Below, one piece after another: positions 18,837 through 59,864 of a stretch of 64,000 nucleotides of DNA (positions are counted from its first letter, which is position 1; every line of letters begins with the position of its first letter). The position numbers and the translations under genes are program-made. The notes beneath the pieces are model-generated. The model ran no database searches, was not told where the DNA came from, and saw only the letters and a program-made list of their open reading frames with translations. This DNA comes from Patescibacteria group bacterium (GTDB lineage: Bacteria > Patescibacteriota > Microgenomatia > Levybacterales > UBA12049), in NCBI GenBank assembly GCA_038063415.1, contig JBBTVD010000011.1, positions 779-64,778 on the forward strand, read 5' to 3'.

Positions 18837-19775
18837 TCAACATTGGCAAGAGCTACAGAAAAACGTTCCCCGCCCTCCGAGTACACATCTTTGAATTATT
18901 GTGCCACAAAGAGGGCATGCTTGTCCATCTTTTTTATACACAAGAAAATGTTTCTGATAATTGCCCTGCGTACCAAGCACACTGATATAGTTATTTGCCG
19001 ATGCTCCCCCCAGCGCAATACTTTTGGTGAGCAATGCCTCGATTGCGACAAAGAGCTTCTGTTGTTCAGATGGGGATAAAGAGCTTGCCGAACGAGTTGG
19101 GAGAATCCCCGCCTGGAAGAGTGCATCATTGGCATAAATATTCCCCACACCGGCAATCCTTCGCTGATCCATAAGAACGGTCTTTATAGGCGATCTGGTA
19201 GCCTTCAGAATGGTTTTAAAATCCTTAAGTGTCAAATCTCGCAACGGCTCCTTCCCAAGAGACTTAAAAAAAGGCAAAAAGGCTACTTCTTCTGTAGGAA
19301 CAACCTGAATCCAGCCAAACTGCCGGATGTCACGATAGTACAACACCGCTCCCCGATCCAAATGAAAAATGACATGTGTGTACTTGTCTGGAAGATCTTC
19401 CAAAGAAAACTGAGAAAAGGATGTAGCATTTTTTTCGTTCGCATCCTGAACTCCTTGATTATTTTTTAAATATGATTGTGTGAATTGCGGAACAGAAAAA
19501 TGTTGCAATCCAATCTCAGATTCTTTATCTTTTGCTGGTTTGTACAATAGCTGCCCCGTCATCTTCACATGAATGGCCAAACTCATATTATTTGAAAAAT
19601 CAATCACCAACCCTTTCCCAAACTTTCTGGCACCACTGACCTTAGCTCCGGTAATTAACTTCGGATCTCCACGAAACTGTTTGGGGAGAGTAATCACAAT
19701 ATCCAAGATCGTGTGTCCTACCAGATGTTTCTTCAGACCAAGACGAATTGTTTCTACTTCAGGAAGTTCAGTCAT
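18837..19775 (-). CDS. Fpg/Nei-family DNA glycosylase (formamidopyrimidine-DNA glycosylase-like) with a ~50-aa insertion
   Basis: Starts MTELPEVE (P2 and E3 catalytic residues). Has an H2TH region and a C-terminal zinc finger CPLCG...CSSCQ. The called start at 19835 is probably spurious. Confidence 0.85.
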   Translation of the reverse strand: MTELPEVETIRLGLKKHLVGHTILDIVITLPKQFRGDPKLITGAKVSGARKFGKGLVIDFSNNMSLAIHVKMTGQLLYKPAKDKESEIGLQHFSVPQFTQSYLKNNQGVQDANEKNATSFSQFSLEDLPDKYTHVIFHLDRGAVLYYRDIRQFGWIQVVPTEEVAFLPFFKSLGKEPLRDLTLKDFKTILKATRSPIKTVLMDQRRIAGVGNIYANDALFQAGILPTRSASSLSPSEQQKLFVAIEALLTKSIALGGASANNYISVLGTQGNYQKHFLVYKKDGQACPLCGTIIQRCVLGGRGTFFCSSCQC

Positions 19776-36483: not shown

Positions 36484-36486
36484 AGG

Positions 36487-36933: not shown

Positions 36934-36934
36934 G

Positions 36935-41751: not shown

Positions 41752-41830
41752 TCCTCATGTTGCATCAACTTCCGAGGAGTCCACAAAAAAAGGACTTCTG
41801 CTCGGAAGACTTTTTGCCCAAAATAAATAG
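41752..41830 (-). terminator. Tandem hairpin plus T-run terminators after pduO (end of the nrdR-nrdJ-pduO operon)
   Basis: On the minus strand: GTCTTCCGAGCAGAAGTCC + TTTTTTT (the lower-confidence call: at most a 4-bp CTTC/GAAG stem with a 6-nt loop), then ACTCCTC-N17-GAGGAGT (perfect 7-bp stem) + TTTTTTT immediately before the next gene. Confidence 0.45.
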
Positions 41831-41892
41831 GCATGGGGATCTGGCTTTACAGTTGCGGCACAGCTCAGGAATGTCACCTGATTCACCCATTT

Positions 41893-42444: not shown

Positions 42445-42475
42445 TTAGACTACCACACCTTTCTCTCTTTTATTT

Positions 42476-42552
42476 GTCATTCCCGCGTAGGCGGGAATCC
42501 AGTAATGAGAAGCGTTCACAGATAGATTCCTGGTTTGCGACCAGGAATGACT
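42476..42552. repeat. Family A repeat, copy 6 (intergenic, within the nrdJ-pduO operon)
   Basis: gtcattcccgcgtaggcgggaatcca + 23-bp spacer + gattcctggtttgcgaccaggaatgact. The spurious ORF 42445..42675 ends in its translation (WIPAYAGMT). Confidence 0.8.
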
Positions 42553-42808
42553 ACTCGTGGGAACGCGAACAGTTGCACCAGCAATCAATGGAAGTAAGGC
42601 AGCGATGACTAAAGAAAGAAATAATACGATGGCGATGGCAATATTTTCTCTGATGAGTTTTTTGATGTTAGGCATAAAAAAATCCTTCTCACCGAGAAGG
42701 ACTATGCCATGATAGCTTTTCCTGCTCGGGCAATATCATCATGTACAGTTTTCTGACTTTACAGTAGCGGCACTGTGGTTGATTTACACAACACTTGCCT
42801 GAACATGA

Positions 42809-45268
42809 CTAACACTCACTATAGCCACAGCTATAGCATTTCTTACAACCTTCTTCATAGGCCAGAGTACTGGATCCACAGTCTGGACAAATATCAAAGA
42901 GACTTGTGGACGAGGTTTGCATAGCTACACCCGTATCAGGAATTGCCAATTGGTTTTGTGCAAGAGAAGCTTCAGTAATAGGCGCATCGGCTGCAATAGC
43001 TGCACCATTCGCGTGTAAACCTTCTCCATTAGTTACCGCATTGATAACCTCTTTATCTTGCACCGTCCCATTTACTTTAAAGTTAGAATGTTTGGACAAG
43101 ACTTTTGCAATAGCATCAGGAAGTGAGCGCACACGATTCTCGCCAAAGCCAATGCTCCGTGAACCGCCAATACCAGTAAGCTCTGAAACAATCTCACGAA
43201 CTCGCTCACGAGCAGGAACCGCACTATGAATACGGAGGACAAAAGAAATCATACGACCAAGGGCATCAGCCAGTGCCATCAGATCTGAACCACTTTTGCC
43301 ATGATTGATGAATACCTCAAACATATTCCCCTTTTCGTCTTCGTTAATCGTGACATACATCTTGCCGCTTGGGCTATCTGATTTATAGGTAACACCGGAA
43401 AGCATCATAGGACGAGGCATACGAGGAGTTACAGGGATAGCAGGCTCTTGAACACTTGGAGCCTCTTGTACTGAGGTTATCAAAGCATCTTCTGCTTTCT
43501 TTTTCTCTTTTTGTGGGTCAATTCTTTCAAGTACTCCTTGTCGAGAACCATCTCGCATATAGGTTACTCCTTTGAGACCCATATCATAGGCTGCCATATA
43601 CAGGGTTTTCACATCGTCAACTGTGTGAGTATTTGGCGCATTGACTGTTTTTGAAATTGAAGAATCAATGTATTCCTGCGCGACTGCCTGGACACGAGTA
43701 TGCTCAAGCGGTGTCAAATCATTTGCGCCAACGAAATAGGCTGGCCTCTCTGCCGTTGGGTTTTCTTTAAGCCATGCCTCATACAAGGGATGATACATAA
43801 TCTCTTCTCCACCTTTCCAAATACGTCTAAACGTGAATTCATACACTGGTTCAACACCAGAACTGACACCTGAAACGAGCGATGTTGTCCCTGTTGGAGC
43901 AATCGTCAAAAGTACTGCGTTACGAATTCCCTGTTCTTCAATCATTTCCCGAATTTTCTTTGGCAATGCTTTGATGTGGTAGCCTTGCATGTATTTTTCT
44001 TTATCAAATTTAGGAAAAATGCCTTTTTCTTTCGCAAGTTCTGATGAAGCAATGTAAGCATTGTCCCGAAGAGTTTTAAAGATTTTTTCAATAACTGGTT
44101 GCGCTTCATCAGCCCCATATTGCAAATGCATTTTAATTAACGCGTCCGCAAGCCCCATAATACCAAGGCCTGTTCTTCGAATATCTTTGGCGACTTCTTC
44201 GTTTTCCTTAAAAAAATAATGCGTTTGATCAATAACATTATCAAGCATACGCATCGCAACTTTAACATCCTGACTAAAGCTGTCGAAGTCAAACGTCCCG
44301 GCTTTGCCTGGTTCGTAACCTTTAACGTAGGCAGACAAATTCATCGCTCCAAGGTTACAGACAGCCCAACCACCAAGAGGCTGTTCCCCACAAGGATTGG
44401 TTGCAATTAATGTCTCAAAATACCATGTATTACTGCGAGCGTTACTTCGACCCAAGAAATGCAATCCTGGCTCTGCTGATCTCCAGGCAGCAGTACAAAT
44501 AAGATCCCACAATTCTCGTGCTTTAACGGTTTTGTGGACTTTGATCTTTCCACCTTTTGCTTTCCATTTATCGAGTTCTCCATCCCACTCTTCATCATAA
44601 CGAGAATCTGAAATATCTGGATAGACCAGCTCCCATTCTTTATCTGCTTTTACGGCCTCCATAAACTCGTCAGAAATACAGACCGAAAGGTTGGCACCAT
44701 TAATCTTGGTGAGGTCTTGCTTCACGGTGATAAATTCTTCAATATCCGGATGCCAATCCCAAAGCATAAGCATTGTTGCGCCACGGCGAGAACCTCCTTG
44801 TTGGACAATGTCATGGGTTGCGACTGAAAAAAGCGTTGCCCAATTAACAGGACCTGAGGAAGTGCCATTTACTTTCCTTACCCGAGCCCCTTTTGGACGA
44901 AGAGAAGAGAGGTTAAGACCAACACCACCAGAGCGAGCTTGAATCTCAACAAGCTGACCGAGTGACTCCAAAATACCGTGGCGTGAATCTTTGGGTGATG
45001 GAATCACAAAACAGTTAAAATACGTGACCTGGTAGCCTGTTCCGGCACCAGACAGGATACGACCTGCCGGAACAAACTTGAAGTCTTCCATCACCCGATA
45101 GAATTCTTTGACCCATTTACGACGCTCGCCTTTCTTTTCGTTCTCGGCAATCCCCCGTGCTACCCGCTGCCACATTTCAACAGGTGTTGGCTCCGTGGGT
45201 TTCCCTTCTTCATCTTTCAATGAATATCGATCCAAAAATACTTTTTGTCTTATACCATCTAATTTCAT
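42809..45268 (-). CDS. nrdJ: Adenosylcobalamin-dependent ribonucleotide reductase (class II)
   Basis: NPCGEQPL...CNLGAMNL active-site Cys/Glu region, 819 aa, C-terminal CxxC...CxxC zinc ribbon (CPDCG...CKKCYSCG). Confidence 0.9.
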   Translation of the reverse strand: MKLDGIRQKVFLDRYSLKDEEGKPTEPTPVEMWQRVARGIAENEKKGERRKWVKEFYRVMEDFKFVPAGRILSGAGTGYQVTYFNCFVIPSPKDSRHGILESLGQLVEIQARSGGVGLNLSSLRPKGARVRKVNGTSSGPVNWATLFSVATHDIVQQGGSRRGATMLMLWDWHPDIEEFITVKQDLTKINGANLSVCISDEFMEAVKADKEWELVYPDISDSRYDEEWDGELDKWKAKGGKIKVHKTVKARELWDLICTAAWRSAEPGLHFLGRSNARSNTWYFETLIATNPCGEQPLGGWAVCNLGAMNLSAYVKGYEPGKAGTFDFDSFSQDVKVAMRMLDNVIDQTHYFFKENEEVAKDIRRTGLGIMGLADALIKMHLQYGADEAQPVIEKIFKTLRDNAYIASSELAKEKGIFPKFDKEKYMQGYHIKALPKKIREMIEEQGIRNAVLLTIAPTGTTSLVSGVSSGVEPVYEFTFRRIWKGGEEIMYHPLYEAWLKENPTAERPAYFVGANDLTPLEHTRVQAVAQEYIDSSISKTVNAPNTHTVDDVKTLYMAAYDMGLKGVTYMRDGSRQGVLERIDPQKEKKKAEDALITSVQEAPSVQEPAIPVTPRMPRPMMLSGVTYKSDSPSGKMYVTINEDEKGNMFEVFINHGKSGSDLMALADALGRMISFVLRIHSAVPARERVREIVSELTGIGGSRSIGFGENRVRSLPDAIAKVLSKHSNFKVNGTVQDKEVINAVTNGEGLHANGAAIAADAPITEASLAQNQLAIPDTGVAMQTSSTSLFDICPDCGSSTLAYEEGCKKCYSCGYSEC

Positions 45269-48470: not shown

Positions 48471-49853
48471 ATGTCTAGCATGTCTCCTAGGCAGGCAGTA
48501 CAATCCAAATCTATGGTACATAACCCTTGGCTGGCTGCCAAACAACAACTGAAAAAAGCTGGAGAACGGCTCGGTATTGACCCATTACTACTAGCTAACC
48601 TGTCTGAACCAGAACGAATTATTGAAGTATCGCTTCCTTTTGTTCGTGATACCAATGACATTCTCACGGTCACTGGCTATCGTATCCAACATAGCAGCAT
48701 CTTAGGGCCGTATAAAGGTGGACTGCGATATCATCCGCAGGTGTCGACGGATGAAGTTAAAGCACTCGCCTTTCTCATGACCATGAAGAATGCCCTCCTT
48801 GGCATCCCGTTTGGCGGCGGTAAGGGGGGCATTACGATTGATCCCAAATCACTTTCCGAAGCAGAGCTTGGACGACTAACGAGGCTCTTTACGAGGAGAC
48901 TTGGTCCCACTATTGGACCTTATTTTGATGTACCAGCTCCTGACGTCAATACGAATCCTAAGATCATGAGCTGGATTGCTGATGAGTTTAAAAAATGTCA
49001 TGCTGAACTCGTTTCAGCATCTTCTTTAGGTTATAAAAAGATCCCGAAACAAGTTCGGGATGACACGTATTTGTCAGCCGTAGTAACAGGGAAACCGATT
49101 ACCGCCGGTGGTTCTGAGGGAAGGACTGAAGCCACAGGACTTGGTGGAAGTTATGCCCTATTGGAATACCTAAAACTCACCGGCAAAAAACCCAAAGGGA
49201 TGACTGTCGGGATACAAGGTTTTGGTAATGTAGGCAGGTTTATTGCGACCTTTCTTCAGCAGGCAGGCATGAAAATTGTCGCGATAGCGGATTCCAAAGG
49301 AGGAATCTATATCCCTGAAGGTATTGAAGATCTTGAGGCTGTACAAAAATGCAAAGAAGCAACGGGGCTTCTTGCCGGCTGCTATTGTGTCGGCTCAGTA
49401 TGCGATATTGCAAATAAGAAAATGCTCAAAGGCAAAGATATCTCTCCTGCCAACATTCTCACACTCCCGGTAGATATTGTCATCCCAGCAGCCCTTGAGA
49501 ATGCAATTACTCCAGAGATTGCAAAAAAGATGCAAGCATCTGTTGTACTTGAAATGGCCAATGCACCAACGACAGCTGAAGCAAACGACATTCTTAGCCA
49601 ACGAGGAGTTACGGTGATTCCAGATATCCTCGCAAATGCTGGAGGGGTCGTTGTCAGCTCCTTTGAATGGGAACAAAATATTAAGCAACAAAAGTGGACA
49701 AAGCAAGTTGTTTTTACTAAGTTACACAAGAAAATGAAGAACACCGTAAAAGAACTCGTAGCAATCAGTAGCACCTATAAAACGCCACTTCGAGAAGCAG
49801 CATATATGCTGGCTCTTACTCGGCTTGCGAAAGCATGGAGAAAACAACACTAA
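48471..49853 (+). CDS. gdhA: Glutamate dehydrogenase (Glu/Leu/Phe/Val dehydrogenase family)
   Basis: GGGKGG catalytic glycine-rich region, a Rossmann GFGNVG, 460 aa. Contains an in-frame family-A repeat insertion (KKCHAELVSASSLGYKKIPKQVRDDT). Confidence 0.9.
   Translation: MSSMSPRQAVQSKSMVHNPWLAAKQQLKKAGERLGIDPLLLANLSEPERIIEVSLPFVRDTNDILTVTGYRIQHSSILGPYKGGLRYHPQVSTDEVKALAFLMTMKNALLGIPFGGGKGGITIDPKSLSEAELGRLTRLFTRRLGPTIGPYFDVPAPDVNTNPKIMSWIADEFKKCHAELVSASSLGYKKIPKQVRDDTYLSAVVTGKPITAGGSEGRTEATGLGGSYALLEYLKLTGKKPKGMTVGIQGFGNVGRFIATFLQQAGMKIVAIADSKGGIYIPEGIEDLEAVQKCKEATGLLAGCYCVGSVCDIANKKMLKGKDISPANILTLPVDIVIPAALENAITPEIAKKMQASVVLEMANAPTTAEANDILSQRGVTVIPDILANAGGVVVSSFEWEQNIKQQKWTKQVVFTKLHKKMKNTVKELVAISSTYKTPLREAAYMLALTRLAKAWRKQH
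48997..49064. repeat. Family A repeat, copy 7 (variant units), in frame inside gdh
   Basis: gtcatgctgaactcgtttcagcatc + spacer + gatcccgaaacaagttcgggatgaca. Both units are hairpins. Confidence 0.75.
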
Positions 49854-49871: not shown

Positions 49872-50831
49872 ATGCAACAGTACACACGAAATCTTGCACT
49901 TGAATTTGTCAGAGTAACTGAAGCAGCGGCTATTGCTGCCAGTCAGTGGATTGGACGTGGAGACAAACATGCTGCCGATCAAGCAGCCGTAAATGAAATG
50001 CGATCCAGGTTTAACCAAATAGACTTCCATGGGACGGTAGTTATCGGTGAAGGAAGAAAGGATGAAGCTCCCATGCTCTATACAGGAGAGCAAGTTGGTA
50101 AAGGAAAACAACCAATTATGGATCTCGCAATTGATCCATTGGAGTGTACTGACAGTGTTGCTTACGGTCGATATAATGCTCTAACGGTTATCGCTGCTGG
50201 AGCAAAAGGTTCCCTCCTCCACGCTCCTGACATGTACATGGAAAAAATTGCAGCTGGATCAATAGCTGCAAAAGTCATTGACCTGGATGCCCCTACAAAG
50301 GTAAACATTGCTAACGTTGCAAAAGCACTTGGCAAAGACCCAAGAGAAGTTACCGTCGTAGTACTGGATCGAGAACGTCACCAGAAACTTATCGCCGAGA
50401 TTCGAGAAACGGGAGCACGAGTAAGGCTTATCACTGATGGAGATATCGCGGCAGCCATTGCTCCCTGCATGGATGATAATCCGATTGACCTGCTCCTAGG
50501 CATTGGGGCAAGCGCTGAGGCAGTCCTCGCAGCAACTGCTATCAAGACACTGGGTGGACAGCTTCTCTGCCGATTTGCTCCCCAAAAAGAAAGTGAGAAT
50601 CAACTGCTTAAAGAGGCTGGAATCACTGATTCTACAAAAATATTAAGTGTTGCAGAGTTAGCAAAAGGTGATGAGCTCACATTCACGGCAACAGGAGTGA
50701 TTGAAGGACCACTGCTTGAAGGGGTTGTCGTAAAAGGAAATAAGATCATCACCCACTCTTTGGTTATTAGAGGTACCTCAGGAACAATACGCTTCATGAA
50801 GACAGAACATCATTATCAGCCAGAGAAGTAG
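49872..50831 (+). CDS. glpX: Fructose-1,6-bisphosphatase class II (GlpX)
   Basis: N-terminal LALEFVRVTEAAAIA...GRGDK and the overall GlpX pattern. 319 aa. Confidence 0.85.
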   Translation: MQQYTRNLALEFVRVTEAAAIAASQWIGRGDKHAADQAAVNEMRSRFNQIDFHGTVVIGEGRKDEAPMLYTGEQVGKGKQPIMDLAIDPLECTDSVAYGRYNALTVIAAGAKGSLLHAPDMYMEKIAAGSIAAKVIDLDAPTKVNIANVAKALGKDPREVTVVVLDRERHQKLIAEIRETGARVRLITDGDIAAAIAPCMDDNPIDLLLGIGASAEAVLAATAIKTLGGQLLCRFAPQKESENQLLKEAGITDSTKILSVAELAKGDELTFTATGVIEGPLLEGVVVKGNKIITHSLVIRGTSGTIRFMKTEHHYQPEK

Positions 50832-50848
50832 AGCATATTCGTAAGAGC

Positions 50849-50930
50849 GAGGTACAAAAATGTTTTGGTTGCATCTGAGCACTTTCTCTTTCTAATAACG
50901 CGAACTCCAACGGAAAAACATTTTTCGTAC
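50849..50930 (+). promoter_or_regulatory. Conserved structured intergenic motif, copy 1 (pgk leader)
   Basis: About 85% identical to 58721-58805. Terminal inverted repeat gtacaaaaatgtttt / aaaacatttttcgtac plus an inner inverted repeat ggttgca / tgcaacgg. Ends 24 nt before the pgk ATG. Confidence 0.55.
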
Positions 50931-50953
50931 AAAGCGACTACGAGAATGTACGT

Positions 50954-52141
50954 ATGAAAAAAATCTCTTACATCGACAATGCAGATATTAAAAACAAACG
51001 AATACTTCTTCGGGCAGATTTTGATGTCTCCCTCACCCACCAGAACGAAATTGCCGATGACGTTCGTATTCGAAGCAACATTCCAACGATAAAGCAATTA
51101 CTTGCTGGTAATAACCGTATTATTTGTGTCGCAAAACTTGGACGACCAGTAAAACCTGACCCGACAAGATCCCTTGCTATTGTCGTCAAGAGACTACAGG
51201 ACTATTTGCCTAATACAAAAATACGACTGATAAAAGATTTTCTCAAAGAGTCGCAAGCAACATTTGCACACCAAAAACTAAACGAGATCTTTGTCTTGGA
51301 AAATATCCGATTTTACCCCGATGAGAAGCTCAATACCCTAGAATTTGCACAGAAACTGGCACTGCTTGCTGATGTCTACGTTAATGACGCTTTTGCGATG
51401 TCACATAGAACAGAAGCATCTGTGGTAAGTGTACCACTCATTCTTCCTTCTTACGGCGGCCTCCTGCTTAAATCTGAAGTACAAGCACTTGATAAGGCAA
51501 TTAAGCGACCAAAGCGTCCCTTGGTTGCCATTATTGGAGGGTCAAAGATCTCAACAAAGATCAGCCTTATTAATAAACTTATTGAAAAAGCTGATTATGT
51601 GATCCTTGGTGGCGGACTTGCCAATGTCTTCTTTCGTGCACAGCGTTATAGTATTGCCAAAAGTATTTGTGAATATGAAATGGTTTTGAAAGCCAGGCAA
51701 CTTCTTTATCTCGCTGCACAAAAACAAACCGCAATTATTCTTCCAACAGATGTCTTAGTAGGCAAACCGCAAGACACTACAAAAGCAGATAAAATAACAC
51801 AAGTTGGAGAAAAAATACCATCAGATCTCTCGATTCTTGATATCGGACCAAACAGTAAAGCCCTTATTGGAACAATTATCGCAAAGGCAAACACGATTAT
51901 CTGGAACGGGCCAGTTGGACTTTTTGAAAATCCATCCTATAGACAAGGAACTGACTTTATTTATCATACCATCACCCACAATAAACAAGCAGTAAGCATT
52001 ATCGGAGGTGGAGATACACTAACCGCAATTGCTGACAAAAAAGATCTCAACAAAATCACTCATCTTTCAACAGGAGGAGGAGCCATGCTTGAATTTATTG
52101 AGAAAGGAACACTCCCTGGACTCGAAGCTCTCAAAAGATAA
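50954..52141 (+). CDS. pgk: Phosphoglycerate kinase
   Basis: RADFDV N-terminal domain and the C-terminal STGGGAMLEF motif. 395 aa. Confidence 0.9.
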   Translation: MKKISYIDNADIKNKRILLRADFDVSLTHQNEIADDVRIRSNIPTIKQLLAGNNRIICVAKLGRPVKPDPTRSLAIVVKRLQDYLPNTKIRLIKDFLKESQATFAHQKLNEIFVLENIRFYPDEKLNTLEFAQKLALLADVYVNDAFAMSHRTEASVVSVPLILPSYGGLLLKSEVQALDKAIKRPKRPLVAIIGGSKISTKISLINKLIEKADYVILGGGLANVFFRAQRYSIAKSICEYEMVLKARQLLYLAAQKQTAIILPTDVLVGKPQDTTKADKITQVGEKIPSDLSILDIGPNSKALIGTIIAKANTIIWNGPVGLFENPSYRQGTDFIYHTITHNKQAVSIIGGGDTLTAIADKKDLNKITHLSTGGGAMLEFIEKGTLPGLEALKR

Positions 52142-53161
52142 TCAATTAGTAAACTCCTGACTATACATTTTCCCATACATACCCCCATCAATAACTCCAA
52201 TACCTATCTTATTAAAATTTGGATTCAGAATATTTGCCCGATGTCCCGGACTATTCATCAGTCCCTGCATGGCAAGCGGCGTTGTTGGAGCAAGTGCCAA
52301 GTTCTCTCCTGCATTGAGGAATTCAATCCCCGCTGCACTCATCCTATCAAATGGAGAAATACCATCAGGGGTATAATGAGAGAAATATCCTCGCTCAAGC
52401 ATATCTTGAGAATGTGCTCGTGCAACATCGCGTAAACTATCGTCAAAAGAAAGCAGATGTAAACCTGCTCGCTGACGTTCGGTGTTTACTGCACGAAACA
52501 TCGCTTGTTCCCCCTCTGGATCGACTATTCCATCAGTTACCTGAAACTGTAGCTTTACCATTTCATTACTCTCTGGCTCAATAGTAAGGAAATTAAGCGT
52601 TTCACTAAATGCTCCACCAAAGATGTCATTAAGACGCTTTTCAAAGAGAGAGGTATTGGCGACAAGGTGAGAACCAAGGGCAGAATGTGTAACTAACTGC
52701 TTTATCATAGGAGAGGAAGGCAAGGCTACAATAATACTGAGAAGAAAGGATAAGATGATAAAAGCAGAAGCGAAACCTGGAAGAATACCCAAAAGATGGT
52801 TTACCCGAGCAAAACCTCGAGCAATTGGACGAGCAGGATTTACCGTTGGGATATATCGTATTCCCTTTCGCAAAAGAATATTAATACTAATCTCACTGAC
52901 AAAAGCCACGAGAAAGAAACCTAACGCATTGGCAAGTCCCAATGGTAGCCCAAAAAAGTGCATGAGCCAATCAGCAACAATAGTATATGTTTTTAAAGCA
53001 AGCGTAAAGGAAAGAATGAAGCTTGTAAGATCAACCGAAGCAAGAATCACTCCAAGGGCATACCCTTCATAGGCATAAAAAAGGAAGATGCAGACAATCA
53101 GTATGTCAAAAAGACTTACACTACTACTGAGAGACGAAAAAAAGTTACTAAAAAGTTCCAT
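52142..53161 (-). CDS. CvpA-family membrane protein fused to a C-terminal CAP/SCP/PR-1 (YkwD-like) domain
   Basis: Four N-terminal hydrophobic helices (CvpA-like), and a C-terminal HSQDM...GHRANILNPNFNKIGIG motif characteristic of CAP domains. Confidence 0.65.
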   Translation of the reverse strand: MELFSNFFSSLSSSVSLFDILIVCIFLFYAYEGYALGVILASVDLTSFILSFTLALKTYTIVADWLMHFFGLPLGLANALGFFLVAFVSEISINILLRKGIRYIPTVNPARPIARGFARVNHLLGILPGFASAFIILSFLLSIIVALPSSPMIKQLVTHSALGSHLVANTSLFEKRLNDIFGGAFSETLNFLTIEPESNEMVKLQFQVTDGIVDPEGEQAMFRAVNTERQRAGLHLLSFDDSLRDVARAHSQDMLERGYFSHYTPDGISPFDRMSAAGIEFLNAGENLALAPTTPLAMQGLMNSPGHRANILNPNFNKIGIGVIDGGMYGKMYSQEFTN

Positions 53162-53256
53162 ACATTGTTTACTGATTCTAGTATTATACCGTAATAACTA
53201 TTTGTCCACGAGTCCCACCATCTGATACAATATAAAGGATTCGCGAAAATAAGGCT

Positions 53257-55470
53257 ATGATCAAGAAATACAAAAAGGTAGTAAAAAAGATAAAGATACC
53301 TCGCCCCACAAAAAAAAGGGCATTATTTGTTCTCGTACCACTTTTGGTTATTGGGCTTATTCTTTTAGGTATTTTTTACTTTATCATTTTGAAAGATCTC
53401 CCTTCGCCTACAGGACTCAACCAAACCACAGGTTCTTACTCAACGCACATGTATGACAGAAATGGAAAGCTTCTCTATACATTATATTCTGATCGCAACC
53501 AAACCTTTATCCCACTTTCGAACATGCCAAAGCACCTGCAACAAGCAACGATAGCCGTTGAAGATAAGGATTTCTATCGTCACGGAGCAATTGATTTCAG
53601 AGGTATTGCAAGAGCAGCATACGCAACAATGGTACACAAAAGACTGGAAGGTGGTTCTACATTGACACAGCAATTGGTAAAAAATAGCCTGCTTAGCCCT
53701 GAAAGAACGATTACCCGTAAAGTGAAAGAGATCATCCTTGCATTTGCCACTGAATTACTCTATTCCAAAGATCAAATTCTTGAAATGTATCTTAACCAGG
53801 TCCCTTATGGAGGAACCTCCTATGGAGCTGAAGCAGCAGCGCAAACATTCCTCGGCAAATCAGCCAAAGATCTTACACTGGCAGAAAGTGCTTACCTAGC
53901 TGGATTACCAGAAGCGCCGAGTGTCCTCTCTCCGTATGGCTCACATCCTGAAAAAGGCAAGGAGCGACAAGAAGAAATTCTCCGCCGTATGTATGATCAA
54001 GGTTACATTACCAAAGAACAACGAGACGCTGCCATGAAAGAAAAACTCGTCTTTGAAAAGATCAGTAACCCTATTAAAGCTCCCCACTTTGTTTTTTATG
54101 TACGGGATCTTCTGGTCAAAAAATATGGTGAGCAAGTTGTTGAACAAGGTGGTCTTAAGGTGCAAACAAGTTTGGATCTTACTCTACAAGAACATGCACA
54201 AGCAACCGTCGCAGCAGAGGTTGCTGCTCTTAAAAGAAATAAGGTTGGTAATGGTGGAGCACTTATTACTAAACCAGGAACTGGAGAGATACTAGCGATG
54301 GTCGGAAGCACCGACTATTTTGATAGTGAACATGGCAATGTCAATATTACACTCGCAAAACTCCAACCGGGTTCATCAATTAAACCAATTAACTATGCAG
54401 TCGGACTTATCAAAGGATATACAGCTGCTACACCATTTCTTGATCAAGCGATCTGTTTTCCGAATCCAGGAGGGAAATCATATTGCCCACGTAATTATGA
54501 TGGAAATTTTCATGGAGTCGTCCAAATGAGGGAAGCACTTGCTAATTCGTACAACATTCCTGCTGTCCAAATGCTTAAGCTCAATGGCCTTGATGCCATG
54601 ATTGCAACTGCTTCTGCAATGGGTCTGACAACCTTTACCGATCCAAGTAGATATGGCCTTTCACTTACTCTTGGTGGTGGAGAGGTTATGATGACAGATA
54701 TGGCCACAGCCTTTGGGGTATTTGCCAATCAAGGATACAGGGTTGACCTTCATCCTATTCTCAAAGTAACCGATAGAGATGGAAAGGTACTTGAAGAATA
54801 TAAACCACCAAAAAGTCCTATTTTTGGGGAGAAAGTAATCCCATCGGAGGTCGCCTATATCATCTCAGACATGCTGGCAGACAATAATGCTCGTGCTCCT
54901 GCATTTGGGACAAACTCAGAGCTACGGATCCCCAATCAACGTGTGTCTGTTAAAACAGGAACCACCAATGACTACCGTGACAACTGGACGATTGGTTATA
55001 CACCTTCTTATCTGATAGCTGTTTGGGTAGGCAATAATGATCACACGCCCATGCAAGGCGTCGTGTCAGGGATTACCGGAGCTGCGCCCATCTGGAATGC
55101 ATTAATGTCACATGTCCTTGATGGGAAGAAGCAAGAAATCCCCCAAAAACCCCCCAATGTTGTCGGAAGATACACCTGTCGTGGGTCAATGCCACCTTCA
55201 GCAAGTCCAGCTCCTGAAGGTGGCGCGCAACCAGCGGGGTGTGCTAATAAATTTGAATACTTTATCAAGGGAGTTCCTGAGAAAAGCACCGGCAAAGTTA
55301 TCCGTGAAAAAGTGTGGATTGATAAAGCGACAAACGCTCAAGCGCAACCAGGTCAAACAGATAATGTAGAAGAGCGCGAAGAATCAGTCTTTATCGACAA
55401 TTCTGGGGCAAAATATTGTATTAGTTGCGCGCACCCGGTACCCTCCCCCACCCCAACACCAGCTCCGTAA
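53257..55470 (+). CDS. Class A penicillin-binding protein (bifunctional glycosyltransferase/transpeptidase)
   Basis: GT51 motif ATIAVEDKDFYRHGAID, transpeptidase SxxK (PGSSIKP), SxN and KTG (VKTGTT). N-terminal transmembrane anchor. Confidence 0.9.
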   Translation: MIKKYKKVVKKIKIPRPTKKRALFVLVPLLVIGLILLGIFYFIILKDLPSPTGLNQTTGSYSTHMYDRNGKLLYTLYSDRNQTFIPLSNMPKHLQQATIAVEDKDFYRHGAIDFRGIARAAYATMVHKRLEGGSTLTQQLVKNSLLSPERTITRKVKEIILAFATELLYSKDQILEMYLNQVPYGGTSYGAEAAAQTFLGKSAKDLTLAESAYLAGLPEAPSVLSPYGSHPEKGKERQEEILRRMYDQGYITKEQRDAAMKEKLVFEKISNPIKAPHFVFYVRDLLVKKYGEQVVEQGGLKVQTSLDLTLQEHAQATVAAEVAALKRNKVGNGGALITKPGTGEILAMVGSTDYFDSEHGNVNITLAKLQPGSSIKPINYAVGLIKGYTAATPFLDQAICFPNPGGKSYCPRNYDGNFHGVVQMREALANSYNIPAVQMLKLNGLDAMIATASAMGLTTFTDPSRYGLSLTLGGGEVMMTDMATAFGVFANQGYRVDLHPILKVTDRDGKVLEEYKPPKSPIFGEKVIPSEVAYIISDMLADNNARAPAFGTNSELRIPNQRVSVKTGTTNDYRDNWTIGYTPSYLIAVWVGNNDHTPMQGVVSGITGAAPIWNALMSHVLDGKKQEIPQKPPNVVGRYTCRGSMPPSASPAPEGGAQPAGCANKFEYFIKGVPEKSTGKVIREKVWIDKATNAQAQPGQTDNVEEREESVFIDNSGAKYCISCAHPVPSPTPTPAP

Positions 55471-55515
55471 GCAGAACATTGATTCTTATACATAAATTTC
55501 GTATGATAACACCAT

Positions 55516-55656
55516 ATGCAAGAACAAAAAATGGATGGCTACAATAGAGAATCAGGACAAAAAACACTACAGTTTGTTGGGGGACTAATTCTTATTATAG
55601 CTCTCTTAGCTGTTCTTTTACTGCTTGCCATGAACAGAGGCTTAGACCTAAGATGA
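55516..55656 (+). CDS. Possible small membrane protein (46 aa)
   Basis: I translated it by hand: MQEQKMDGYNRESGQKTLQFVGGLILIIALLAVLLLLAMNRGLDLR. Followed by a 15-bp direct repeat ttgtaagaaagaaaag x2. Confidence 0.3.
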   Translation: MQEQKMDGYNRESGQKTLQFVGGLILIIALLAVLLLLAMNRGLDLR

Positions 55657-55813
55657 TTGTAAGAAAGAAAAGGTCTTTTGTAAGAAAGAAAAGAAAGGCT
55701 TCTCTATCTCCTTCCCAAAGAATGACTACTTTTGTATAATTATTTTGGGCTGACACAGAACACGCCCCTAACTATTTTCCCAGTGTCCTGAACAGAAGAG
55801 GTTTTTTTAGTTT

Positions 55814-58030
55814 ATGCGGATTTTTTTGCGTGCTATTTTTTGGTGCTTATTTTTTCTCATAGGGATTGAATCTTGTGTACAAAAAAGTATTTCCTGGATA
55901 TGTGCTTTTGTAGCTCAGCAATCTCGTCATGTAGGAGTACTACGAACAGATATTGTCTCTCAAATAGAAAAACTAACTGTAGAAGCAAAAAAAAAGAGAA
56001 CCTTGAGATACCTTCGCCTTTTTTCAAAAAAACATTTACTCCATAGACGACGAGGAAGAAAGCCATTACAAGCATCACTACGTTCAAAAACGACATATAT
56101 AGTTCTCGGAAGTTTATGCTCCTTTGTTTTTCTTTTTTTACCACTCACATTCTTTATTTTTCTTCAAGAGCTACCCAATCCAAGTCAACTTACCTACCGA
56201 GCAATTCCACAAACATCGCATATCTATGACCGTCACGGAAAACTTCTTGCTGAAATTTATGCAAACCAGGACCGAGAGATGGTCTCACTCAAAGAGATTC
56301 CTCCTTCGCTTAAAGAAGCAACCATTGCTATTGAGGATAAAAATTTCTACCATCATCCAGGGTTCGATATACAGGCAATTGTCCGAGCATTGAAAGAAAC
56401 TATTTCAGGATCATCGAAGCAAGGCGGCTCAACGATTACCCAACAATTGATCAAATCCTCGCTACTCACTCCGGAGCGAACAATCACTCGTAAAGTAAAA
56501 GAAATTATCCTTGCATTCTGGGCAGAGCAACTCTATACCAAAGACCAAATTCTTGAAATGTATTTTAACCAGGTGCCGTATGGTGGAACAGCATGGGGAG
56601 CACAAGCTGCCGCAGAATTGTACTTTGCAAAGCCAGTGACTGACCTGTCACTGGCAGAAAGTGCTTTTTTGGCAGGACTAACAGCTGCACCAAGTATCTA
56701 CTCTCCATATGGACCCACTCCTGATGCCTGGAAAGTACGACAAAAGAAAGTACTAGCCAGTATGCTTGAAGAAGGCTACATCTCACCAAAAGAAGCTTCC
56801 CAAGCAACCAAAGAAGCGCTTCAATTCCAAAATGCTTATACAGCCATTCATGCACCTCATTTTATTACCTATGTTAAAAACTTGCTGACAGACAAATATG
56901 GTATCGCCATGGTAGAAAAAGGAGGGCTCAGCATCTATACAACACTTGATCTTGCTACACAAAAGTTTGCAGAAGACGCGGTTAAAGATGAGGTTGAAAA
57001 AGAAGCTGCACTTAATCTCACTAATGGAGCAACTTTAGTAACAAACCCCAAAAATGGTGATGTACTGGCTATGGTCGGAAGCCATGATTTCGACGACCCA
57101 ACCTGGGGAAACGTTAATCTAACGATTGCGAGAAGACAACCTGGATCATCTATTAAAGTGGTTACCTATGCGGCGGCGCTTATGGAAGGATTTACGGCAG
57201 CATCACTTCTTGAAGATACACCCGTAACGTATGGGGAATACGACACCCCATACTCTCCCGTAAATTATGATGGACGATTTCATGGAGATATTCCACTGCG
57301 GTACGCACTGGCTAATTCATACAATATCCCTGCTGTTAAGACACTAGATGCAATTGGAATAGCTACGATGGTGCAGTTGGCAAAAGACATGGGAATTACC
57401 ACGTGGGGAAAACCGGAAGACTATGGACTTTCTCTCACCTTGGGAGCAGGTGAAGTACGAATGATAGACCTGGCGACAATATACGGCACGCTTGCAAACG
57501 ACGGAAAACGAGTAAATCTCAATCCTTTTCTTAAAATAACAGACGCAAAAGGGACTATCCTTGAAGAAAAAAGAGAACCAGAAGCAGAACAAGTGCTTAA
57601 ACCAGGCGTTGGCTTTATTATCTCGGATATTTTGGCAGATAATCAAGCTCGATCCTGGGCATTTGGAAGGTACTCACCGCTTGAAATACCAGGAAAAACC
57701 GTCTCGGTTAAAACAGGAACCACTGATGACAAACGAGATAACTGGACGATTGGCTATACCCCTTCTTATCTGGTGGCTGTGTGGGTGGGTAATAACAATA
57801 ATACACCTATGAGTCCAGGATTTACATCAGGAATTACGGGTGCCGCACCAATCTGGCATACGATTATGGCAAAGCTACTCACGGATACAAAAGATGAACC
57901 ATTGAGTAAACCACAAAATATCATCGAAAGAAACTGCAGAGGTAACAAAGAATACTTCATTACTGGCACCGAACCTGCAGGGCGTTGTGGATTTCGGACA
58001 CCGTCGCAAGGAGGCTATTCACGACAATAG
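55814..58030 (+). CDS. Class A penicillin-binding protein, second paralog
   Basis: ATIAIEDKNFYHHPGFD, PGSSIKV, VKTGTT. 738 aa. The true start may be downstream of 55814. Confidence 0.9.
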   Translation: MRIFLRAIFWCLFFLIGIESCVQKSISWICAFVAQQSRHVGVLRTDIVSQIEKLTVEAKKKRTLRYLRLFSKKHLLHRRRGRKPLQASLRSKTTYIVLGSLCSFVFLFLPLTFFIFLQELPNPSQLTYRAIPQTSHIYDRHGKLLAEIYANQDREMVSLKEIPPSLKEATIAIEDKNFYHHPGFDIQAIVRALKETISGSSKQGGSTITQQLIKSSLLTPERTITRKVKEIILAFWAEQLYTKDQILEMYFNQVPYGGTAWGAQAAAELYFAKPVTDLSLAESAFLAGLTAAPSIYSPYGPTPDAWKVRQKKVLASMLEEGYISPKEASQATKEALQFQNAYTAIHAPHFITYVKNLLTDKYGIAMVEKGGLSIYTTLDLATQKFAEDAVKDEVEKEAALNLTNGATLVTNPKNGDVLAMVGSHDFDDPTWGNVNLTIARRQPGSSIKVVTYAAALMEGFTAASLLEDTPVTYGEYDTPYSPVNYDGRFHGDIPLRYALANSYNIPAVKTLDAIGIATMVQLAKDMGITTWGKPEDYGLSLTLGAGEVRMIDLATIYGTLANDGKRVNLNPFLKITDAKGTILEEKREPEAEQVLKPGVGFIISDILADNQARSWAFGRYSPLEIPGKTVSVKTGTTDDKRDNWTIGYTPSYLVAVWVGNNNNTPMSPGFTSGITGAAPIWHTIMAKLLTDTKDEPLSKPQNIIERNCRGNKEYFITGTEPAGRCGFRTPSQGGYSRQ

Positions 58031-58034
58031 TATG

Positions 58035-58697
58035 CTAACGTATTTTTAATTCTTTTTTTAACAAATCATATTGTTGTTGCGGAGTTTGTAAGTTATAGAG
58101 AAAACTTGTCGCAACAAAACGACTCGCTCCATGAGCAGCAGCTATCGAGATTGTCTCATCATTGATCCCCCCATCGACCTCAATCGGTATACTCGTCTGT
58201 TGAGAAAGCTTCTCAACTTTCTGTAACAGGTCTTCCTCAAACAATTGTCCGGAGTGACCCGCTTGAATGGTCATCACAAGCACGGTATCAAGATTTTCAA
58301 GATCAATCGTAATCCCATCAATTGAAGTCTGTTTATCAAGCGCGAGCCCTACTTCTCCAAAATGCTGTGCTGCCGCCACAAAAGCGACTTGATCAGACAT
58401 TTTTTCGACATGCCCAATGAAGCGATGAAAGCCTGCATCCGCCCAGCGTTGCAAATGATTGATTGGCTCATCAACCATCAAATGCACTTCAAACAGAAGG
58501 CTATTCTCGCTTGCAGGAGTGTTTTGGGTATACTTCACAAATGGAGCTGGATCAGCAAAGGTAGTATGCGGAGCAAACTTTCCATCAACAACATCGATAT
58601 GGATCGTTCGAGAAAATGGCTTTACGAGCTCAATCTTTTTCTCCATTTCTGCCCAATCTTTGTTGTTTGTCCCAGGACTTGGAATTATTTCATACAT
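58035..58697 (-). CDS. rpe: Ribulose-phosphate 3-epimerase
   Basis: HIDVVDGKFAPHTTF and HLMV motifs and a C-terminal DGGIN. The start was set at MYEIIPS. Confidence 0.85.
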   Translation of the reverse strand: MYEIIPSPGTNNKDWAEMEKKIELVKPFSRTIHIDVVDGKFAPHTTFADPAPFVKYTQNTPASENSLLFEVHLMVDEPINHLQRWADAGFHRFIGHVEKMSDQVAFVAAAQHFGEVGLALDKQTSIDGITIDLENLDTVLVMTIQAGHSGQLFEEDLLQKVEKLSQQTSIPIEVDGGINDETISIAAAHGASRFVATSFLYNLQTPQQQYDLLKKELKIR

Positions 58698-58720
58698 ATT
58701 ACTTATCTCCTTCAACGCGT

Positions 58721-58805
58721 AAGGTGCAAAAATGTTTTGGTTGCACCTGAGCTCCTTTTGTCTTTATAACAATGCGAACTGCAACGGAAAAATATTTTTC
58801 GTCCC
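58721..58805 (+). promoter_or_regulatory. Conserved structured intergenic motif, copy 2 (between rpiB and rpe)
   Basis: aaggtgcaaaaatgttttggttgcacctgagc...gcgaactgcaacggaaaaatatttttcgtcc aligns with 50849-50930 across its whole length. Confidence 0.55.
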
Positions 58806-58816
58806 GAACGCATTTG

Positions 58817-59323
58817 TTACATTGTCTCTTCAAGTTTCTTGATCTTTTCTATTCTTCGTAGATGTCTTTCATTGGATGGATTGGCTGTTTCCAACCATAT
58901 CTGTACAGCATGAAGAGCGTCTTCCTCTTTGAGAAACCGCACCGCAAGAGAAAGCATATTGGCACCATTATGCTCCCGAGTAAGCTTCACAATCTCAAAA
59001 GGATCAGTACTTTCTCTGCCTTCTGCATTTATCGCTTGTGTAGGAAGTACGGGGGTAGAGAATATCGCACAACGAACACCTGCAAACTTATTTGCAACGA
59101 TTGCTTCCCCCTGTCCAGAGCCACCAAAGATAATGCCTCGACTATTCTCAGGATCAGCAGAGACCGCTTTTGCTGCTTTTGTGATAAAGTCTGGATAGTC
59201 ATCATTTTTATCAAACGTATACGCCCCACAATCCTCAACTACATACCCTTTCTCTTCAAGAAAAGTTTTGACCGTATTTTTGAGCGTAACTCCTGAATGA
59301 TCAGTTGCTAAATATACTTTCAT
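58817..59323 (-). CDS. rpiB: Ribose-5-phosphate isomerase B
   Basis: MKVYLATDHSG...GGSGQGEAIVANKFAGVRCA. The start was set at MKVYL. Confidence 0.85.
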   Translation of the reverse strand: MKVYLATDHSGVTLKNTVKTFLEEKGYVVEDCGAYTFDKNDDYPDFITKAAKAVSADPENSRGIIFGGSGQGEAIVANKFAGVRCAIFSTPVLPTQAINAEGRESTDPFEIVKLTREHNGANMLSLAVRFLKEEDALHAVQIWLETANPSNERHLRRIEKIKKLEETM

Positions 59324-59324
59324 A

Positions 59325-59864
59325 TTATCTTCCCACAATAACCTCAGCATCCGTTGTAATTGTTTCATCAGTTTCAACCGTTATTGTCTTCCCTGCTGCG
59401 GCTTCCTCAATATCTGTTTGTAGCTGCGCAAGGTAAGGACTCTCTTTTTCTTGTAAGAGAATCGTTATTCCTTGATAGTTGAAACGCGCTGCATTGCCTG
59501 TCCGAGTAATCGTATAGCCCAACGATTGTAACTGTGAAGAAATCCCACCAGCAGAACCAGCAATGCCACTTCCATTAAGAACGATTATAGAGAAATCTTT
59601 CCGAGCAAGCGGTGTGGGTATCGTTTGCGAAGCAGTTGGAACAAATGTCAGGGTTGGAACAGTCGTTGCGGTAGGCTTTGCCGAAAGGAGTGGCGTATCT
59701 TTTTTGGTTGTCGCGCCAAGAAGATAGAGTCCCGTAAGGAGTGCCACAATAAGCGCCACGATCACAAAAAACGGCATCAAAAACTGTGAGCGAGAGGCCG
59801 ATTTTTCAAGTGATGCTGGTAAGTGTTCTGCTGTTCCTTCTTGCATGTAGATCAGGCTCTGCAT
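59325..59864 (-). CDS. LytR_C-domain protein (C-terminal domain of LytR/CpsA/Psr), membrane-anchored
   Basis: Transmembrane helix, a Thr/Pro linker, then IIVLNGSGIAGSAGGISSQLQSLGY typical of LytR_C. Confidence 0.55.
   Translation of the reverse strand: MQSLIYMQEGTAEHLPASLEKSASRSQFLMPFFVIVALIVALLTGLYLLGATTKKDTPLLSAKPTATTVPTLTFVPTASQTIPTPLARKDFSIIVLNGSGIAGSAGGISSQLQSLGYTITRTGNAARFNYQGITILLQEKESPYLAQLQTDIEEAAAGKTITVETDETITTDAEVIVGR

Follow-up and report, generated by a model that had tools for sequence, protein, structure and literature searches.

A palindromic interspersed repeat, probably mobile and of MITE- or RPE-like character, between sugar-phosphate genes of a groundwater Patescibacteria genome

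The window, a stretch of 64,000 nucleotides from an ultra-small groundwater bacterium of the Patescibacteria group (contig JBBTVD010000011.1), contains two imperfect palindromes of ~92 nt, one between glpX and pgk and the other between rpiB and rpe. With considerable confidence, these are copies of a mobile palindromic interspersed repeat that resembles a MITE or a Rickettsia palindromic element (RPE), and not a switch of sugar metabolism. Each was inserted between genes that in relatives are closely spaced or overlap. Members of the same repeat family also occupy unrelated junctions and one protein-coding loop, and paired changes between subfamilies preserve the palindrome.

The initial annotation had described the two copies as about 85 % identical, and an identity of 86.4 % was obtained over the 81-nt core (50850-50930 for copy 1 and 58722-58804 for copy 2, both on the plus strand), where chance predicts ~0 such matches. 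Exactly two occurrences in the window were counted for the 19-mer CAAAAATGTTTTGGTTGCA and likewise for the 29-mer GCGAACTSCAACGGAAAAAYATTTTTCGT; the expectation from shuffles is 0.09 for the former and 0.00 for the latter. As the homology between the copies extends ~6 nt past the core on each side ([A/C]GCG-NN ... NN-A[G/A]CG), the unit is ~92-94 nt long. The terminal inverted repeat reported earlier is present, with imperfect arms of 22-25 nt (e.g., GTACAAAAATGTTTTGGTTGCA / TGCAACGGAAAAACATTTTTCGTAC). Copy 1 has the left arm GTACAAAAATGTTTTGGTTGCA (50852-50873) and the right arm TCCAACGGAAAAACATTTTTCGTAC (50906-50930), separated by an AT-rich, asymmetric centre and flanked by AGCGAG and AAAGCGA; the arms of copy 2 are located at 58724-58745 and 58780-58804. 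The inner pairing of GGTTGCA with TGCAACGG, proposed earlier for this motif, is intact in copy 2 but is broken by one base in copy 1 (TCCAACGG). Over the whole family, units measure 92-105 nt, have a GC content of 0.33-0.41 and share no conserved ORF; the size limit used here for MITEs, which lack coding capacity of their own, was <about 300-500 bp. Both window copies were seen in several independent assemblies (ENA, Logan) and are, thus, not an assembly artefact.

The identities first assigned to the neighbouring genes were correct according to Pfam (Table 1). The glpX-pgk spacer of 122 nt holds copy 1 in forward orientation relative to pgk, and 23 nt separate the end of the copy from the pgk ATG (24 nt had been given). 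The rpiB-rpe spacer, taken to be 100 bp, measures 119 nt and holds copy 2 on the plus strand; since rpiB and rpe are both on the minus strand, this copy is reversed relative to rpe, as had been stated.

Table 1 Location of the repeat copies and of the genes beside or around them (coordinates without prefix are those of the window)
Feature	Location	Strand	Evidence or context
Repeat copy 1 (subfamily A)	50846..50937	+	Covariance model R1, 99.6 bits
Repeat copy 2 (subfamily A)	58718..58811	+	Covariance model R1, 103.4 bits
Diverged member (subfamily B)	19413..19517	+	Covariance model R1, 39.3 bits, E about 3e-7; pairwise alignments
glpX (class II fructose-1,6-bisphosphatase), upstream of copy 1	49872..50831	+	Pfam PF03320, E 2e-126
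pgk (phosphoglycerate kinase), downstream of copy 1	50954..52141	+	Pfam PF00162, E 1e-119
rpe (ribulose-phosphate 3-epimerase), downstream of copy 2	58035..58697	-	Pfam PF00834; gene call
rpiB (ribose-5-phosphate isomerase B), upstream of copy 2	58817..59368	-	Pfam PF02502; gene call
fpg/mutM, host gene of the in-frame copy	18837..19775	-	Pfam; PDB; P0241, NCBI name
Close copy c3	L107:9842-9935		Between khpB/jag and a Wzy_C O-antigen-ligase gene
Close copy c4	L095:1805-1897		Between response regulator and histidine kinase
Diverged member L087x	L087:1762-1862		Between an AdoCbl riboswitch (downstream of nrdJ) and pduO; covariance model R1
Diverged member L111x	L111:2886-2977		Between gdh and glpX; covariance model R1

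Evidence for insertion comes from the orthologous junctions of relatives with the same gene order and a PGK that is 71-74 % identical. The gap between pgk and its upstream gene, 122 nt in the window, is 4, 10, -1, 13, and -4 nt in L086, L087, L089, L110, and L111, respectively, and the rpiB-rpe gap is 4, 1, and 9 nt in L086, L087, and L089. No homology to the repeat was found at these junctions in the loci of the relatives examined, so that the site is empty in five of five relatives at pgk and in three of three at rpiB-rpe. As the junctions are tight or overlapping in the relatives, both window copies are regarded as lineage-specific insertions. The reverse situation was also observed: the gdh-glpX site that carries the repeat in L111 is empty in the window, where the two genes are 18 nt apart. 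The insertion polymorphism expected of a MITE, with filled and empty sites among relatives, was thus found.

A gapped-pattern scan of metagenome contigs yielded two further close copies, c3 and c4, which both derive from well H14 at Hainich. The copies do not share one orientation relative to the gene downstream: copy 1 and c4 are forward, while copy 2, c3, and L087x are reversed. The neighbours of the repeats, namely khpB and Wzy_C, a two-component system, the interior of fpg, and nrdJ and pduO, are functionally unrelated. Copies beside genes outside carbohydrate metabolism had been named beforehand as the outcome that would favour a plain MITE over a role specific to sugar phosphates; these contexts together with the empty sites support the small mobile element that the initial annotation had offered as its alternative reading. 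Both window copies and L111x, from a relative, do lie in the central-carbon cluster, which is the only region in which relatives were sampled. Among copies of the same sample, two of the five are in central-carbon junctions; with ~7 of 60 junctions qualifying, a rough estimate puts the probability of this at about 0.1. In the preferred reading, the siting beside sugar-phosphate genes would be incidental.

Within the ~75 kb examined, this genome has two close copies and one diverged copy. An extension of the window by ~11 kb via neighbouring contigs contained no further copy, and a long-hairpin scan of all loci, which was too noisy, added no members. Six JGI contigs (Ga03254xx) and SDBT01031803, also retrieved by the metagenome scan, were rejected as chance matches because only the blocks forced by the pattern match, without the outer arms; these matches lie in ORF-poor DNA of different composition. 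The contig of c3 carries its own pgk, 53 % identical to that of the window, and may represent another organism or a pgk paralogue in the same genome. Interspecies horizontal transfer was considered for c3 on account of this low identity, as against a tetranucleotide composition (r = 0.97) and a coverage that are both indistinguishable from those of the window. Other interspersed palindromic families are present in the same window, one of them in frame within a gene for a 5'-3' exonuclease, which indicates that the genome has been colonised by such repeats.

A diverged copy of the repeat is located inside fpg, where it is in frame and provides 35 stop-free codons (residues about 87-121 of 312 aa). 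In an alignment of the Fpg protein with solved MutM structures in the PDB, residues 77-124 stand for a turn of five residues, and the insert peptide is missing in 20 relatives. The window thus has a palindromic repeat that is accommodated in frame without disruption of the ORF, as in RPEs; copies 1 and 2 are intergenic. The subfamily B centre CCYGAACTCCTYGATTATTTYTTAAATA is common to this copy and L087x, and only these two members have a single open frame in common, which faintly suggests an RPE-style compatibility with coding. The Fpg protein carries a Thr at the position of the catalytic Pro2.

In a sequence comparison of the copies the arms are invariant, with 19 nt shared unchanged by the four close copies, and the centre is variable, the pattern expected if the ends are needed for mobilisation. 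Between subfamilies the arm sequence is wholly different, and yet pairing is retained; in L087x the stem is a perfect one of 19 bp. In the stems, pairing extends to 90.8 % of cells, and both partners have changed in 6 of 24 pairs, values reached in 1-3 of 500 shuffles. The unpaired flanks and the centre motif CYGARCTCC are conserved across the subfamilies, which hints at constraint beyond that on simple terminal repeats. Covariation had been put forward as a check for an RNA element, and paired changes were indeed found, but in a symmetric DNA palindrome they do not distinguish RNA from DNA constraint, and DNA-level constraints explain them equally well. Folding of single copies gave weak z-scores for the two in the window (-0.9 to -2.7) and stronger ones, down to -5.4, for other family members. 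Only in copy 2 does the transcribed strand fold better than its complement; it folds slightly worse in copy 1, c3, c4, and L087x; the lack of a preference for this strand gives no sign of selection at the RNA level.

The ~75 kb examined contain neither a transposase gene nor a RAYT-like one, and Pfam scans of the window gave no Y1-transposase domain. A target-site duplication could not be defined: an AGCG-type direct motif stands on both sides of most copies and may belong to the element itself or be favoured as a target, but the register of the flanking [A/C]GCG..A[G/A]CG motif is inconsistent. As neither a transposase nor a target-site duplication was found, we infer mobilisation in trans by an enzyme that recognises the two arms or the hairpin; it could be a transposase or an HUH-type enzyme specific for hairpins, with its gene elsewhere. 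The repeat would have spread within a Patescibacteria lineage (CPR, near Microgenomates/Roizmanbacteria) of the Hainich groundwater. An exact scan with an 18-mer of the arm in 185,579 species genomes (one per GTDB species) gave 81 matches, all regarded as chance since none has the right half of the repeat. Viral contigs gave 0 matches, as did a distant blastn search against plasmids and phages.

Of the known systems, the Correia/NEMIS elements of Neisseria and the ERIC/IRU elements of enterobacteria, a class of about 100-150 bp, are similar to the repeat in arms, hairpin, siting, polymorphism, and motifs. Correia and ERIC elements are noncoding MITEs with long imperfect terminal inverted repeats in which the whole unit forms one hairpin; they are dispersed in intergenic spacers, often within operons just upstream of genes, vary in presence between relatives and carry promoter-like and RBS-like motifs (PMC10969869). 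The present repeat shows no sequence similarity to them and no recognised duplication of TA or any other target. It further differs in its very low copy number so far, in its reduced-genome CPR host, and in that its arm sequence is subfamily-specific while the motifs of flank and centre are shared. The RPEs are palindromes of comparable length, likewise in a genome that is small and reduced, occur both between genes and in frame within them, and are inserted in surface loops, as are the 35 codons that replace the 5-residue MutM turn in fpg; of the present family, however, a single genic copy was seen. Sequence homology with the RPEs of Rickettsia is not expected across phyla.

REP/BIME sequences, associated with RAYTs (IS200/IS605-type Y1 transposases), share with the repeat a stem conserved in structure rather than sequence, short motifs flanking the palindrome ([A/C]GCG here), and an intergenic position within operons. 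The flanking tetranucleotide of REPs is GTAG. REPs are, however, GC-rich single hairpins of 20-40 nt with tens to hundreds of copies, whereas the repeat is ~95 nt long and AT-rich, and the DNA examined holds no RAYT-like gene. An integron attC site was also ruled out, as R''/R' core motifs, a cassette array, and an adjacent intI are all lacking.

It is possible, although rather unlikely, that an element of mobile origin has been exapted and that the inserted copies now matter for gene expression. Three routes can be envisaged. The long co-transcribed hairpin could be a site for RNase III or the degradosome and so break the coupling of glpX to pgk and of rpiB to rpe. The forward strand could act through the promoter-like TTGCAT-N18-TAtAAt, and the reverse strand through AGGAG-N5-ATG/GTG, a Shine-Dalgarno sequence and start codon from which a short upstream frame opens. 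For Correia and ERIC elements, a supply of promoters, IHF sites, and RNase III/E sites is documented (PMC10969869). A scan detected no intrinsic terminator within the copies or interrupting either junction, and a terminator in the repeat was ruled out in view of the absence of a GC-rich stem with a T-run. The AGGAG-N5-RTG motif is intact in copy 2, c3, c4, L087x, and the copy in fpg, and the upstream frame stops 1 nt before the ATG of rpe in copy 2 and 10 nt before that of Wzy_C in c3. However, rpe retains a Shine-Dalgarno sequence of its own (GAAGGAG, 58706-58712, complement) outside the repeat. The promoter-like motif is present as TTGCAT-18-TATAAT in c3 and in weaker forms in copies 1 and 2 and in c4, but it is not conserved in L087x and is directed antisense into the upstream gene in copy 2 and c3. 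A strong sigma-70 promoter was ruled out, as only 3 of the 6 bases of its -35 hexamer agree with TTGACA and no sigma-70 site was called within the copies at the thresholds of the scan. Conservation of these motifs among copies 1 and 2, c3, and c4 is not independent evidence since the four are close relatives, and the folding of the transcribed strand described above also argues against a hairpin selected as RNA.

A DNA operator is very improbable. In this reading the inverted arms (AAAAATGTTTT, about 60 bp apart), which are strongly conserved and have A-tracts, would bind a nucleoid protein or transcription factor through which the flanking genes are regulated together, and such a site could function in either orientation. 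The same junctions lack the repeat in all relatives, the flanking genes share no function, and one member lies within a coding sequence. From one subfamily to another the arms are completely different in sequence but still pair; an operator read by its sequence should show the opposite. A co-occurring regulator, which the initial annotation had suggested looking for, was not found near either window copy.

The proposal of a cis-regulatory element for sugar-phosphate metabolism, with a riboswitch-like leader of pgk and rpe sensing a sugar phosphate, is largely refuted and has next to no probability left: the sense position of copy 1 in the 5' leader of pgk and a hairpin with paired changes speak for it, but the repeat is tied neither to conserved orthologous sites nor to an orientation or gene class (copy 2 lies antisense to the transcript of rpiB and rpe, and one copy is inside fpg), it is one symmetric hairpin without multi-helix junctions, its window copies do not fold better than shuffled sequences (z about -1), and searches of Rfam 15 at gathering and permissive E-value thresholds, covering the window, the surroundings of both copies, L091, L095, and L087, gave only sub-threshold chance or generic hairpin matches.

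If, as preferred here, the copies are inserted mobile repeats, read-through in the glpX-pgk and rpiB-rpe transcripts would produce an interrupted hairpin of 25-30 bp. This would break the former tight gene spacing and could change the processing or stability of the mRNA, as Correia and ERIC elements do, so that any change in expression would be a side effect and not metabolite sensing. The three subfamilies share unpaired flanks and an asymmetric centre, one strand reads AGGAG-N5-ATG/GTG, and the stems co-vary between subfamilies. A bolder and decidedly improbable interpretation is that these features mark a structure-recognised hairpin, belonging to an undescribed hairpin-specific mobilisation system in CPR or serving as a portable translation-start or processing module. 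If the latter were true, such modules would have reshaped operons and, together with other repeat families, inserted peptides into protein loops; it would also be a case of RPE-like 'selfish DNA in protein-coding genes' outside Rickettsia.

In conclusion, a MITE- or RPE-like palindromic repeat family is documented in a Patescibacteria genome, and a false lead is removed, as it is not a new riboswitch or operator for sugar phosphates. Mobile DNA is considered scarce in Patescibacteria, and no paper describing such repeats in this group was found. Gene pairs that are closely spaced or overlap in all relatives are separated by the insertions, which are thus marks of a recent remodelling of operons. 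In-frame copies, one in fpg and one, of a second family, in the 5'-3' exonuclease gene, suggest that repeats contribute to the unusual insertions in CPR proteins. In metagenome-assembled genomes, searches for regulatory RNAs that rely on motifs can also be led astray by repeats of this kind.

The two-copy motif described in the initial annotation proved real: the cores of copy 1 (c1, between glpX and pgk) and copy 2 (c2, between rpiB and rpe) are 86.4 % identical across 81 nt, and a search of the 64 kb for the conserved blocks CAAAAATGTTTTGGTTGCA and GCGAACTSCAACGGAAAAAYATTTTTCGT gives exactly two matches each even with up to three mismatches tolerated, against 0.09 and 0.00 expected from shuffles. 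Copy 1 lies 23 nt upstream of pgk in sense orientation, next to Pfam-confirmed genes, and copy 2 lies in a 119-nt gap, antisense to the transcript of the minus-strand genes rpiB and rpe. The two sites stand as placed; a four-copy alignment extends the homology by about 6 nt on either side of the limits first drawn. A protein identical to the window PGK is encoded on Hainich groundwater well H14 contigs (ENA ERZ1292645, ERZ1292660; Logan runs), and NCBI assigns it to a 'Patescibacteria group bacterium' MAG. The closest named PGK homologues are from Roizmanbacteria, and no relatives with a PGK identity between 74 and 100 % were found.

Coordinates of the repeats and other features (in the window unless a contig is named)
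Feature	Coordinates	Strand	Remarks
Copy 1 core	50850-50930	+	unit 50846-50937
Copy 2 core	58722-58804	+	unit 58718-58811
glpX	49872-50831	+	Pfam
pgk	50954-52141	+	Pfam
rpe	58035-58697	-	Pfam
rpiB	58817-59368	-	Pfam
c3	L107:9842-9935		between khpB/jag and Wzy_C O-antigen-ligase gene
c4	L095:1805-1897		between receiver-domain response regulator and histidine kinase
L087x	L087:1762-1862		nhmmer
L111 member	L111:2886-2977		between gdh and glpX; covariance model
fpg/mutM	18837-19775	-	host gene of repeat 19413-19517
pgk of c3 contig	L107:16583-17770	-	395 aa
AdoCbl-II aptamers	41826-41902, 42738-42809; L087:1922-2001	-	Rfam
GC-rich repeat	23838-24000, ~10540-10650		~100-110 nt
5'-3' exonuclease ORF	23320-24360	-	
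REP-like hairpins	11232-11291, 13890-13921, 20725-20790, 42475-42560		
TGTCATGCTGAACTTGTTTCAGCATC / GATCCCGAAACAAGTTCGGGATGACA hairpins	16343-16376, 20297-20327, 48996-49066		
Class A penicillin-binding proteins (PBP)	53257-55470, 55814-58030	+	tandem paralogues
tRNA	36935-37006	-	
VirD4/TraG-like coupling-protein gene	37051-39426		

The pgk neighbourhoods of five relatives with 71-74 % identical PGK (L086, L087, L089, L110 and L111) were compared. The gene order GAPDH - gdh - FBPase - pgk - ... - PBP - PBP - rpe - rpiB - lytR - spoIID is kept in the three long-contig relatives, L086, L087 and L089. By this comparison the window copies are insertions, as the junctions are tight or overlapping in the relatives: pgk and its upstream gene are 122 nt apart in the window and 4, 10, -1, 13 and -4 nt apart in the five relatives as listed, while the 119 nt between rpiB and rpe correspond to 4, 1 and 9 nt in L086, L087 and L089 (n = 3, this junction lying beyond the coverage of L110 and L111). 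Subtracting the element leaves about 25 nt of the window rpiB-rpe spacer, with the GAAGGAG Shine-Dalgarno sequence of rpe retained. The element was not found in the relatives' pgk and rpiB-rpe junctions by blastn, nhmmer or a covariance model. A conserved leader or operator is thus disfavoured, since it would be expected in the relatives, yet is absent there. The paralogous PBPs (transglycosylase plus transpeptidase) share 78-81 % DNA identity in stretches (repeats D1 and D2), and their duplication is kept in relatives.

Searched for in one genome per GTDB species, an 18-mer of the arm had chance matches only. Scanning metagenome contigs with a gapped two-block pattern yielded two more true copies, c3, which adjoins the dnaA-dnaN-rpmH-rnpA-yidC region, and c4, both from Hainich well H14. 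Identity among the four close copies is 78-84 % across 94 nt, with invariant arms and a variable centre; c1 and c4 point the same way as the downstream gene, c2 and c3 the opposite way. The element was not found in plasmids, phages or viral contigs. The c3 contig matches the window in tetranucleotide profile (r = 0.97) and coverage. Its own pgk, outside the conserved glycolytic cluster, is only 53 % identical to the window pgk; it is either a paralogue or belongs to a second CPR organism that co-occurs and has the repeat too.

Using the four close copies, nhmmer gave a weak match in L087 (L087x), which has the same plan with different arm sequences: a perfect 19-bp outer stem, and an inner stem TCTCA/TGAGA versus TTGCA/TGCAA in the close copies. 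Shared with the close copies are the centre CCGAACTCC and the flanks AGCGAG...GAGCGG. L087x has an AdoCbl-II riboswitch aptamer on one side and the start of a pduO-type adenosyltransferase gene on the other. A covariance model built from these five sequences plus the hairpin added two members, one in L111, where the corresponding gdh-glpX gap of the window is 18 nt, and window 19413-19517 (39.3 bits, E about 3e-7 by rough calibration), whose homology to L087x and c3 is clear on pairwise alignment. Members from relatives are necessarily close to pgk, as only that neighbourhood was retrieved. Both window AdoCbl-II aptamers exceed the Rfam gathering threshold; one directly follows a class II ribonucleotide reductase gene, upstream of a pduO-type adenosyltransferase gene, and the other overlaps the adenosyltransferase gene at its 3' end, upstream of a 527-aa protein without Pfam match. 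In the window and L087 alike, the stretch from the first aptamer to the start of the adenosyltransferase gene contains palindromic repeats.

Central-carbon genes border about 7 of about 60 junctions in the region, and two of the five same-sample members (c1, c2, window 19413, c3 and c4) lie at such junctions. The sugar-phosphate association is probably incidental, because this gives P about 0.1 (rough binomial) even before discounting for the pair itself having drawn attention. With orthologous junctions empty and other copies beside unrelated genes, the proposed regulatory element for sugar-phosphate metabolism is unsupported; the fallback offered with it, a small mobile element, is supported by the empty sites, unrelated neighbours and mixed orientation.

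In the five-sequence alignment, standard pairs fill 90.8 % of pair cells and 6 of 24 pairs have changed on both sides, values matched by just 1-3 of 500 shuffles; on these grounds the palindrome is maintained. Sliding the pair partners abolishes the covariation signal, and in c3 a swap of CTGAGC...GCGAAC to CCGAAC...GTGAGC leaves two pairs around a tandem G-A/A-G intact. Such paired symmetric changes do not demonstrate an RNA function, being expected in any maintained DNA palindrome, for which matched transposon ends, hairpin-recognising enzymes and template switching are candidate causes. The strand that would be co-transcribed folds better than the opposite strand in c2 only and slightly worse in c1, c3, c4 and L087x; the left-arm A-to-G changes of c2 and c3 would give C-A mismatches in their mRNAs. 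Folding of the window copies is no better than shuffled in three of four strand/copy combinations (z about -1).

The element fits a MITE-type, RPE-like interspersed palindromic repeat, given its small size, long inverted arms, variable centre, empty sites in relatives, unrelated neighbours, mixed orientation, subfamilies whose sites differ between genomes and one in-frame genic copy. The properties of the Correia, ERIC and RPE families used for this comparison come from a review (PMC10969869). No transposase or RAYT-like gene was found in the ~75 kb annotated. A direct [A/C]GCG ... A[G/A]CG motif recurs just beyond the arms, in a register inconsistent among copies, and no target-site duplication could be made out.

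Inserted copies might since have been exapted, with promoter- or processing-like features now affecting expression, which is considered unlikely. As no terminator is predicted at either junction, transcription of the neighbouring genes probably runs through both window copies; the transcribed copies would fold into an interrupted 25-30-bp hairpin, in junctions lengthened by the insertion. The forward-strand centre reads TTGCAT-N18-TAtAAt (-10 perfect in c3) and the reverse-strand centre AGGAG-N5-ATG/GTG, from which a short frame runs to 1 nt before the rpe ATG in c2 and to 10 nt before the Wzy_C ATG in c3. These motifs resemble the known promoter and processing effects of Correia and ERIC elements (PMC10969869). 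However, the promoter-like motif, which matches 3 of 6 positions at -35 and was not called in a promoter scan, would be wrongly oriented in half of the copies, rpe retains its own ribosome-binding site, and close copies are non-independent evidence.

The genic member of this mobile-type repeat lies in frame in fpg/mutM, spanning 35 codons without a stop. In an alignment, residues 77-124 of the window Fpg stand in place of a 5-residue turn in solved MutM structures, and the insert peptide occurs in 0 of 20 related Fpg proteins. The loop, bounded by MTGQLLY and LPDKYTHV, has a hypervariable length in CPR relatives (L113:1323-2255; L114:576-1514), and in at least two of them it contains other palindromic repeats in frame: TTCCCGC...GCGGGAA in P0250 and, in P0244, one resembling the GC-rich family of the window. 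Repeats seem to have inserted at this loop repeatedly. Window Fpg starts with MTELPEVE (19770-19775), against MPELPEVE in all 20 aligned relatives. Pro2 serves as the catalytic nucleophile in Fpg/Nei enzymes; with this residue replaced, the insert-bearing fpg may encode an impaired enzyme.

Of the GC-rich interspersed repeat (..GACGTCGGARYGGGGTGAGGAG..), the intergenic copy is downstream of pth and the other is in frame in a 5'-3' exonuclease gene; there, 54 residues (aa 121-174) stand where solved Pol I 5'-nuclease domains have ~5. REP-like hairpins, GTCATTCC(C/T)GC-N-GC(G/A)GGAATC, have the core ATTCCC-N8-GGGAAT, and several are arranged as inverted pairs, similar to BIMEs or to the dRS3 core of Neisseria. 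A further short hairpin family, TGTCATGCTGAACTTGTTTCAGCATC / GATCCCGAAACAAGTTCGGGATGACA, likewise starts with TGTCAT. A XerC/D-type tyrosine recombinase adjoins the tRNA and the coupling-protein gene, and region 35599-39426 may mark the boundary of an integrated element. A literature search found no published reports of such repeats in Patescibacteria; this host group and the in-frame insertions add slightly to the significance of the repeat.
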